The notes: generated by a model not told the origin, from the sequence alone. DNA of 56,700 nucleotides from Escherichia coli (GCF_003334255.1 NZ_QOWU01000034.1), one strand, 5' to 3'; numbered from the stretch's first letter, positions 1 through 1,785 are shown. Translations and numbers: made by a program.

Positions 1-567
1 AGCTGATAGAAACAGAAGCCACTGGAGCACCTCAAAAACACCATCATACACTAAATCAGTAAGTTGGCAGCATCACCCAAAGTTATGTTATGTTAGGCAA
101 AGTAATCTTCTATTATTAATAAGCACATCAAAACCTTTTTGAATATTAAATAATAATTAATTAGCATCATCCTCATTCATTAATTCCGCTTAACAATAGT
201 TTCACACCTTGCCCCCATTGCGACACCTCGGAAATCATCACGCAGTTAAACTCTCCGTAATGAGGAAATATCATCATCGCGTTTCATTAGTGAATTCTTA
301 AATGAGGCATTTTCACACAATTATCTTACAGATAAAAAAACCAGACTTACAATTAAGAATCAGAACAATTCACTATATAACATTGCATGTAAAGCATATA
401 CACCTCATTATTTTGTCATTATTAAGTTATTAACAGCACAATCGAGCCTTCCCCTCTGGCAAAATCTTATTCTGCAGACCTTCAAAACACCGTCCTGGGG
501 GAGTACATTGTTCTAAGCTGACTTCCACGGCAGGGAGTGGCGATAACAGCAAAAAAGGTCAAGATTC

Positions 568-1785
568 ATGTCCCCCATTGAAAAATCCAGCAAATTAGAG
601 AATGTCTGTTATGACATCCGTGGTCCGGTGCTGAAAGAAGCAAAACGCCTGGAAGAAGAAGGTAACAAGGTACTGAAACTGAACATCGGCAACCCAGCCC
701 CGTTCGGTTTTGACGCGCCAGATGAAATCCTCGTTGACGTGATACGCAACCTGCCTACCGCTCAAGGGTATTGCGATTCCAAAGGTCTTTACTCCGCGCG
801 TAAAGCCATCATGCAGCACTACCAGGCTCGTGGCATGCGTGATGTTACCGTGGAAGATATTTACATCGGCAATGGTGTATCGGAGCTTATCGTTCAGGCA
901 ATGCAGGCATTGCTGAACAGCGGGGACGAAATGTTGGTTCCTGCACCAGATTACCCACTCTGGACCGCGGCGGTTTCGCTTTCCAGCGGTAAAGCGGTGC
1001 ATTATCTTTGCGATGAATCCTCTGACTGGTTCCCGGACCTCGATGATATTCGCGCTAAAATTACGCCTCGTACGCGTGGGATCGTTATTATCAACCCAAA
1101 TAACCCAACCGGCGCGGTATATTCCAAAGAGCTTTTAATGGAGATTGTGGAGATTGCACGTCAGCATAATCTCATTATCTTCGCCGATGAAATTTATGAC
1201 AAAATTCTCTACGACGACGCTGAGCATCACTCAATTGCGCCGCTGGCACCTGACCTGCTGACCATTACCTTTAACGGACTGTCGAAAACGTACCGCGTTG
1301 CAGGCTTCCGTCAGGGGTGGATGGTGTTGAACGGGCCGAAAAAACACGCCAAAGGCTACATCGAAGGTCTGGAAATGCTGGCTTCAATGCGCCTGTGTGC
1401 TAACGTTCCTGCGCAACACGCCATTCAGACCGCGCTAGGTGGTTATCAGAGCATCAGTGAATTTATTACCCCTGGCGGTCGTCTTTATGAGCAGCGTAAC
1501 CGCGCGTGGGAACTGATCAACGATATTCCGGGCGTTTCCTGCGTGAAACCTCGTGGTGCGCTGTATATGTTCCCGAAAATCGACGCCAAACGCTTTAACA
1601 TTCACGACGATCAGAAAATGGTGCTGGATTTCCTGTTGCAGGAAAAAGTTCTGTTGGTGCAAGGGACGGCATTCAACTGGCCGTGGCCGGATCACTTCCG
1701 CATTGTCACGCTACCGCGTGTCGATGATATCGAGCTGTCTTTGAGCAAGTTCGCGCGTTTCCTTTCTGGTTATCATCAGCTGTAA
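568..1785 (+). CDS. alaA: Glutamate-pyruvate aminotransferase AlaA (PLP-dependent class I aminotransferase)
   Basis: ATG at 568; 405-aa ORF with aminotransferase class I fold features (NGLSKTY lysine region); protein recognised as AlaA/YfbQ. Confidence 0.93.
   Translation: MSPIEKSSKLENVCYDIRGPVLKEAKRLEEEGNKVLKLNIGNPAPFGFDAPDEILVDVIRNLPTAQGYCDSKGLYSARKAIMQHYQARGMRDVTVEDIYIGNGVSELIVQAMQALLNSGDEMLVPAPDYPLWTAAVSLSSGKAVHYLCDESSDWFPDLDDIRAKITPRTRGIVIINPNNPTGAVYSKELLMEIVEIARQHNLIIFADEIYDKILYDDAEHHSIAPLAPDLLTITFNGLSKTYRVAGFRQGWMVLNGPKKHAKGYIEGLEMLASMRLCANVPAQHAIQTALGGYQSISEFITPGGRLYEQRNRAWELINDIPGVSCVKPRGALYMFPKIDAKRFNIHDDQKMVLDFLLQEKVLLVQGTAFNWPWPDHFRIVTLPRVDDIELSLSKFARFLSGYHQL

Follow-up and report, generated by a model that had tools for sequence, protein, structure and literature searches.

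The 567 nucleotides that precede alaA at the left end of the window (the whole stretch of Escherichia coli DNA analysed here, 56,700 nucleotides) are very probably, at about 85%, a composite of two parts: the end of an IS1 element (positions 1-77) and the alaA-proximal 490 bp of the divergent control region shared by lrhA and alaA (78-567). The product of lrhA is a LysR-type master repressor of flhDC, and that of alaA is an alanine transaminase. Both components, IS1 and the lrhA–alaA control region, are already known; the novelty lies in the insertion allele, with IS1 placed just upstream of the lrhA promoter, which is new among complete genomes. Smaller additions are an alaA promoter and hairpin conserved across the order, and a block at 139-198 conserved within Enterobacteriaceae. 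The main segments of the interval are the following.

1-77, minus strand: left end of IS1, terminal 77 nt, identical at 77/77 positions to the end of the W3110 IS1A copy.
78-86, no strand: presumed alaA-side copy of the target-site duplication, CAAAGTTAT; position 78 is the first native base after IS1.
78-458, no strand: AT-rich upstream part of the lrhA–alaA spacer, 32% GC (MG1655 2407071-2407451).

Positions 1-77, with a GC content of 44%, include the 23-bp inverted repeat of IS1, GGTGATGCTGCCAACTTACTGAT, which is exact when read from 77 to 55; a 39-nt pattern of the IS1 end has one match in the window, where none is expected, and the same 77-nt end finds matches in thousands of IS1 copies among E. 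coli genomes. Deeper in the element, an insA promoter-like pair is found on the minus strand, CTGCCA (70-65) and TATGAT (48-43) with a 16-bp spacer, and the insA start codon GTG follows at 22-20 on the same strand; its first seven codons (VASVSIS) can be read before the frame runs off the left edge, and the ORF starts about 55 nt inside the IS1 end, as expected of IS1. The window begins inside IS1, and the transposase genes read leftwards, in the same direction as lrhA. A complete IS1 measures 768 bp, carries both insA and insB', is closed by a second inverted repeat and generates a duplication of 8-9 bp. The remaining 691 bp would extend leftwards and end in ...GGAGTCATTACC (lrhA strand), followed by a second CAAAGTTA(T). 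In the closest relative the native sequence is uninterrupted (...ctgatgCAAAGTTATgtt...), whereas here CAAAGTTAT follows directly on the IS1 end; the target-site duplication in this strain is presumed from this comparison, since just one flank lies in the window. The first-pass annotation had taken the whole interval for non-coding DNA with no convincing ORF; this is borne out for 78-567, where the longest ORF with a start codon encodes 43 aa and lies in unconserved DNA, but not for the IS1 end, the first ~22 bases of which are the beginning of a coding gene, insA.

To the right of the junction, the DNA is that of E. coli K-12. Positions 78-567 are 100% identical to the K-12 sequence upstream of alaA and likewise to that of many other E. 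coli genomes; the identity is still 100% over 78-700 in K-12 and further strains, with the synteny of alaA and yfbR kept downstream, and over 78-25000 in phylogroup A genomes, e.g. G1/2. The alaA coding sequence occupies 568-1785 (405 aa), with the start where it had first been placed, at 568, and RefSeq genomes annotate the corresponding positions. In MG1655, in G1/2 and in W3110 once its IS1 is removed, lrhA on the minus strand and alaA on the plus strand are separated by a 919-bp spacer; a window position p corresponds to MG1655 p + 2,406,993, and the window contains the alaA-proximal 53% only of this spacer. As judged from all related genomes, lrhA should lie beyond IS1, outside the window; thus the idea that the regulatory region is shared with a divergent gene upstream was correct, and lrhA is that gene. 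When compared with the K-12 region of 919/920 bp and its hexA/pigU/pecT–alaA counterparts, which receive several regulator inputs, the stretch 78-567 has the same sequence as in K-12; unlike the K-12 region, it is here split off by IS1 and no longer adjoins lrhA.

The low GC content reported at first pass was confirmed, being 0.353 for 78-567 against 0.515 for the whole window, a value within the lowest 1.6% of all 490-bp windows of the stretch; it falls to 0.320 for 78-458 and to 0.244 for 78-200, and in 200-bp windows it stays at 0.32-0.35 across 1-500, compared with about 0.5 in alaA. The multiple A/T tracts described together with it are present but few and modest, with four runs of 5 or more. 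Within 1-700, a search for repeats gave short chance-like matches only, and a tRNA search of the region found none; an Rfam search at permissive and gathering thresholds returned only rliB (Listeria) with E = 0.34, at chance level, and no match at the gathering threshold. A second very low-GC stretch is located near the right end of the window, at ~55971-56460 (about 0.30 in 490-bp windows).

A similarly AT-rich spacer is found far beyond E. coli. Eighty loci encoding AlaA relatives were compared, 69 of them enterobacterial, and in 61 of the 69 alaA was preceded by a divergent lrhA/hexA/pigU homologue; the spacers of these loci measure 500-1100 bp, mostly 750-1000 bp, with a GC content about 10 points under the locus average. 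Judging from these loci, the long AT-rich divergent spacer is an ancient conserved arrangement. Lengths off the usual range were observed in Pectobacterium and Brenneria (~500 bp; L050, L053, L054), in Dickeya (1591 bp; L040) and in Budvicia (2511 bp; L072), where the two longer spacers may hold inserted genes. The 24% GC of 78-200 and the attraction of IS1 to it could recall horizontally acquired DNA silenced by H-NS. This origin is highly improbable and was discarded, as the AT-rich spacer keeps its syntenic position throughout the order. As for silencing, no match to the high-affinity H-NS motif TCGATAAATT was found with up to two mismatches, where 1.2 would be expected, and the W3110 SELEX table flags other spacers as H-NS-bound, not the lrhA–alaA one (PMC3946193). 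The other two regulators proposed at first pass gave matches at chance level for Fis and a mild enrichment for Lrp (6 matches vs 2.1 expected); motif scans of the region for IHF, Fis, CRP and OmpR were uninformative.

The position of the insertion with respect to lrhA can be derived from data on its transcript. The lrhA mRNA has a 371-nt 5' UTR, targeted by UhpU, ArcZ and RprA (PMC10578931), and Hfq-bound fragments of this UTR had earlier been named ig-lrhA-alaA (PMC4152368). Counting 371 nt back from the lrhA ATG, transcription starts at MG1655 2,407,012, exactly 7 nt downstream of a -10 hexamer, TAAAAT, with the -35 hexamer TTATAA 17 bp further upstream; both hexamers are conserved in the 23 aligned enterobacterial spacers. 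The IS1 junction (77/78) is located 59 bp upstream of this start, or 67 bp assuming a 9-bp duplication. Thus, the lrhA core promoter and the sRNA-targeted UTR stay with lrhA beyond IS1, and all the DNA of 78-567 is displaced by 768 bp from lrhA, since IS1 stands between them.

Such a displacement would change lrhA expression, and alaA should be unaffected. The change is probably upwards, although with low confidence, if transposon insertions in the E. coli and Serratia spacers are a guide: in E. coli they raise lrhA expression, according to the account of Gibson and Silhavy (1999) given in PMC10810281, and in Serratia an insertion in the pigU–alaA spacer raises pigU expression (PMC10810281). 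Conversely, ST131 becomes hypermotile when transposons insert in this spacer, upstream of lrhA (PMC5425062), which implies a loss of lrhA expression, opposite to the increases in E. coli and Serratia; these opposed outcomes indicate that the direction of the effect depends on position. The spacer has indeed been cited, at 920 bp, as a long multi-factor control region with SELEX peaks of RNA polymerase holoenzyme (PMC3946193), and an elevated OmpR ChIP signal was found within it (PMC3945435), in agreement with the multi-factor promoter region first supposed here; in Pantoea, about 921 bp of the spacer are required for full lrhA complementation (PMC10810281).

The closest known counterpart of this insertion is the IS1 copy of W3110, which has the same element end (77/77), the same orientation and the same lrhA–yfbQ(alaA) spacer, and which is recorded as a known difference between W3110 and MG1655 (PMC2072959). 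The W3110 copy, however, is 291 bp further from alaA and interrupts the 371-nt UTR, 161 bp ahead of the lrhA ATG, so that lrhA is cut off from its native promoter in W3110-derived strains; in the insertion described here, unlike in W3110, the lrhA promoter and UTR are intact. The W3110 element itself spans positions 1810-2577 of its locus (L001) and is flanked by a duplication of AAAAAAGC. A SELEX-chip study of W3110 lists CTGCCA-16-TATGAT as the lrhA promoter (PMC3946193), and this sequence is identical to the IS1 insA promoter found here at 70 to 43. Since W3110 has IS1 in the spacer, the listed signal appears to belong to IS1 and not to be the native lrhA promoter.

Insertions of IS1 in this spacer were then counted with queries made of 50 nt of the IS1 end and a 50-nt native anchor, against 5,426 complete RefSeq E. 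coli genomes, among which the source genome is absent; insertion positions, read off the match spans, carry an uncertainty of a few bp. The exact junction in the same orientation was found in 0 of the 5,426 genomes. IS1 is nevertheless present in or at the lrhA–alaA spacer in about 84 of them (raw genome counts), 53 in the same orientation and 31 in the opposite one, and these copies occupy at least 30 site/orientation combinations, many of them 30-165 bp upstream of the lrhA start or inside its 5' UTR. Two genomes, EH01-18-04-A and EC19, have IS1 at the identical site in the opposite orientation, as established by one-piece 100-nt matches and by the sequence of both junctions, with a flanking duplication of CAAAGTTA. 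They share with the window the same nucleotide junction (CAAAGTTA...) and differ from it both in orientation and in the isoform of the element, which is divergent (end GGTAATGGTGCC...); this indicates that their insertions are independent of the one described here.

Taken at face value, this picture could point to an adaptive hotspot, in which spacer insertions are positively selected because they rewire lrhA and, with it, motility, fimbriae and RpoS. The clustering of the sites around the lrhA start and 5' UTR, the use of one site in both orientations by different IS1 isoforms, a rough expectation of about 12 genomes under uniform density, and the recurrence of lrhA as a target in gut evolution and motility screens would fit such a scenario. 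A like-for-like control gave a different indication: in the yfcV–sixA spacer, with the same IS1 end and one anchor, 35 genomes with at least 15 distinct spans were recovered, against per-anchor counts of 33 and 25 genomes at lrhA–alaA. Moreover, the orientations are about equally represented, as expected from target preference and not from promoter capture, and the counts include shared ancestry, with 14 records of W3110-type laboratory derivatives that go back to one event. Positive selection of these insertions is thus rather unlikely: the control spacer is hit equally often, so that a generic preference of IS1 for AT-rich intergenic DNA suffices and selection at lrhA is not required. By the same preference IS1 would have landed in the spacer described here. 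No stretch of the window has a lower GC content than the yfcV–sixA spacer (48704-49383; 0.29), a frequent landing site of IS1, where the copies recovered are in one orientation and within 550 bp of the anchor.

The composite nature of the interval leaves the AT-rich DNA between the junction and the alaA-proximal elements to be accounted for. In an alignment of 23 spacers from Enterobacteriaceae genera (that of E. coli and 22 others), three conserved blocks are recognized: the lrhA promoter (equivalent to window positions 19-78, beyond IS1), 139-198 and 459-567; apart from the second block, 78-458 is poorly conserved, 200-458 included (0.2-0.47). The second block has the following position.

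139-198, no strand: conserved AT-rich block, 120-180 bp upstream of the native lrhA start.

Its identity to the E. coli base across the 22 other spacers is 0.63, 0.46 and 0.66 in successive 20-nt bins. A palindrome of the T-N11-A form that LysR-type boxes take, ATTAA-N7-TTAAT, occurs at 145-161, and the block also has the motifs CATTAAT and CTTAACA; the palindrome is perfect, with 2 such occurrences observed vs 0.27 expected (p ~0.13), a frequency within chance in DNA so rich in A and T. From its conservation and location, the block would serve lrhA as an upstream operator module, a coupling that IS1 has now broken, and 78-458 as a whole would be mainly upstream regulatory DNA of lrhA. A stronger version of this proposal is that IS1, at -59, separates lrhA from a putative LrhA autoregulatory or OmpR site at 139-198 and that the natural cluster of IS1 insertions works as a recurrent selectable switch in wild E. 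coli; we regard it as doubtful, but, if it were true, the uncoupling would bring the master repressor of motility, type 1 fimbriae and RpoS turnover to a new level.

We also considered whether the AT-rich stretch hides a small RNA or an unannotated gene for a small protein. A study on Serratia speculated on sRNAs in the alaA–pigU spacer and the long spacer requirement for lrhA complementation in Pantoea comes from the same report (PMC10810281); the Hfq-bound ig-lrhA-alaA RNA and a native 84-aa ORF that crosses the insertion site could be read in the same way. However, the lrhA 5' UTR, on the left side of IS1, accounts for the Hfq-bound RNA, no Rfam family matched, and the 43-aa ORF mentioned above is the longest in 78-567, so that such a gene or RNA is very unlikely. 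The 84-aa ORF, which starts with ATG, is unannotated in MG1655, mostly poorly conserved and cut by IS1, and is probably not a gene; it corresponds to L004 1755-2009 on the minus strand (window-equivalent -112 to 142), where it overlaps the lrhA promoter and the beginning of the UTR in antisense.

The signals of alaA itself are concentrated at the right end of the interval, where the elements conserved between genera are confined to 459-567, the last ~110 bp. They are listed here together with a candidate promoter located further upstream.

353-381, plus strand: candidate secondary alaA promoter, TTAAGA-17-TATAAC, proposed in a SELEX-chip study of W3110 (PMC3946193).
460-474, no strand: candidate Lrp operator, CAAAATCTTATTCTG, with two mismatches to the Lrp SELEX consensus.
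481-509, plus strand: putative alaA core promoter, recognized by conservation, with -35 TTCAAA (481-486), a 17-bp spacer and -10 TACATT (504-509).
517-541, plus strand: stem-loop at the 5' end of the predicted alaA mRNA, with stem and loop sequences both conserved in many Enterobacteriaceae.
555-570, plus strand: Shine-Dalgarno AAGG (555-558, conserved) and alaA ATG (568-570).

The promoter at 481-509 was identified through conservation and not through the consensus promoter scan; indeed, TTCAAA-17-TACATT agrees with the consensus at 8 of 12 positions, under the scan threshold of 9. In a wider alignment of the alaA end, comprising 39 taxa, the arrangement CTTCAAAA-N14/15-GGAGTACATT is conserved from Escherichia to Yersinia, Serratia, Dickeya, Photorhabdus, Xenorhabdus, Providencia and Arsenophonus, suggesting that alaA is transcribed from a short sigma-70 promoter that is deeply conserved. 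From conservation and hexamer spacing alone, transcription is predicted to start at about 516, leaving a 5' UTR of ~52 nt. Just upstream of the -35 hexamer, CAAAATCTTATTCTG is conserved among close genera, and it is probably an Lrp site, as its resemblance to the SELEX consensus suggests. Regulation of alaA by Lrp was reportedly described by Kim, Schneider and Reitzer in 2010.

These results bear on the earlier description of the interval as a leader of more than 560 nt, that is, on the view that its ~500 bp are a long transcribed alaA leader, or hold distal alaA promoters with sites for nucleoid proteins that control alaA. Some data agree with it: an RNA polymerase SELEX peak with TTAAGA-17-TATAAC at 353-381 was assigned to alaA, so that longer alaA transcripts may exist; two more promoter-like matches lie on the plus strand (325-353 and 413-442); Lrp-like matches are mildly enriched; and in the Serratia spacer mutant the increase in pigU was accompanied by one in alaA (PMC10810281). 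These upstream motifs, however, are located in the least conserved part of the spacer, where the 353-381 motif itself scores 0.29-0.47 between genera, and the consensus promoter scan gave 3 matches vs 1.6 +/- 1.2 in shuffles, which is not above expectation; there is neither an Rfam leader or riboswitch match nor a terminator or attenuator on the plus strand, and the promoter conserved across the order is only ~60-85 bp upstream of the ATG. The length of the region is accounted for by the 371-nt UTR of lrhA and by the region upstream of it. A long alaA leader is thus quite unlikely, and the 560-nt leader gives way to the predicted UTR of ~52 nt.

Within this short predicted UTR, the hairpin core is formed by ACUUCC (521-526) pairing with GGGAGU (533-538) around the loop ACGGCA (527-532). 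The hairpin is present in both the minimum-free-energy and the centroid fold, with an energy that is not unusual (z = -0.2); across 21 taxa its pairing is kept in 73% of cells vs 66.6% in shuffles, none of 500 shuffles reaching 73%, and its outer pairs covary yet are often broken. RNAalifold predicted no structure in the alaA 5' UTR, the hairpin having been specified manually. Overall, the comparison suggests, and does not prove, a conserved hairpin in the alaA UTR; the segment 517-541 could act in the mRNA, as a stabilising 5' hairpin, or in the DNA, as an operator spanning about +5 to +25.

The signals of alaA are thus short and conventional, and they add little that is new for the region itself; the alaA promoter with its hairpin and the 139-198 block nevertheless represent concrete targets for studies on the control of alaA and of lrhA/hexA/pigU. 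For the annotation of this strain, the relevant point is that IS1 stands between lrhA and the DNA originally upstream of it. The lrhA gene controls flhDC, fimbriae and RpoS degradation, and thus motility and biofilm formation of the strain may differ from those of IS1-free relatives. A comparable situation is offered by the IS1 and IS5 insertions upstream of flhDC in K-12 stocks, where an IS likewise occupies the AT-rich spacer of a motility regulator, alters motility and recurs in laboratory and natural strains; that locus is a different one, and at lrhA–alaA, where IS1 may affect lrhA, the control spacer indicates that the frequency of insertion is not special.

Finally, the sequence TTGCGAATTATCTGAT, 42-57 bp upstream of the lrhA start, adjoins the IS1 target site on the lrhA side; it is found at L004 1821-1836 (window-equivalent 61-76, outside the window), it may bear a loose resemblance to an RcsAB-type box, and it is conserved in several distant genera (Cedecea, Enterobacter sp. 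Ag1, Shimwellia).
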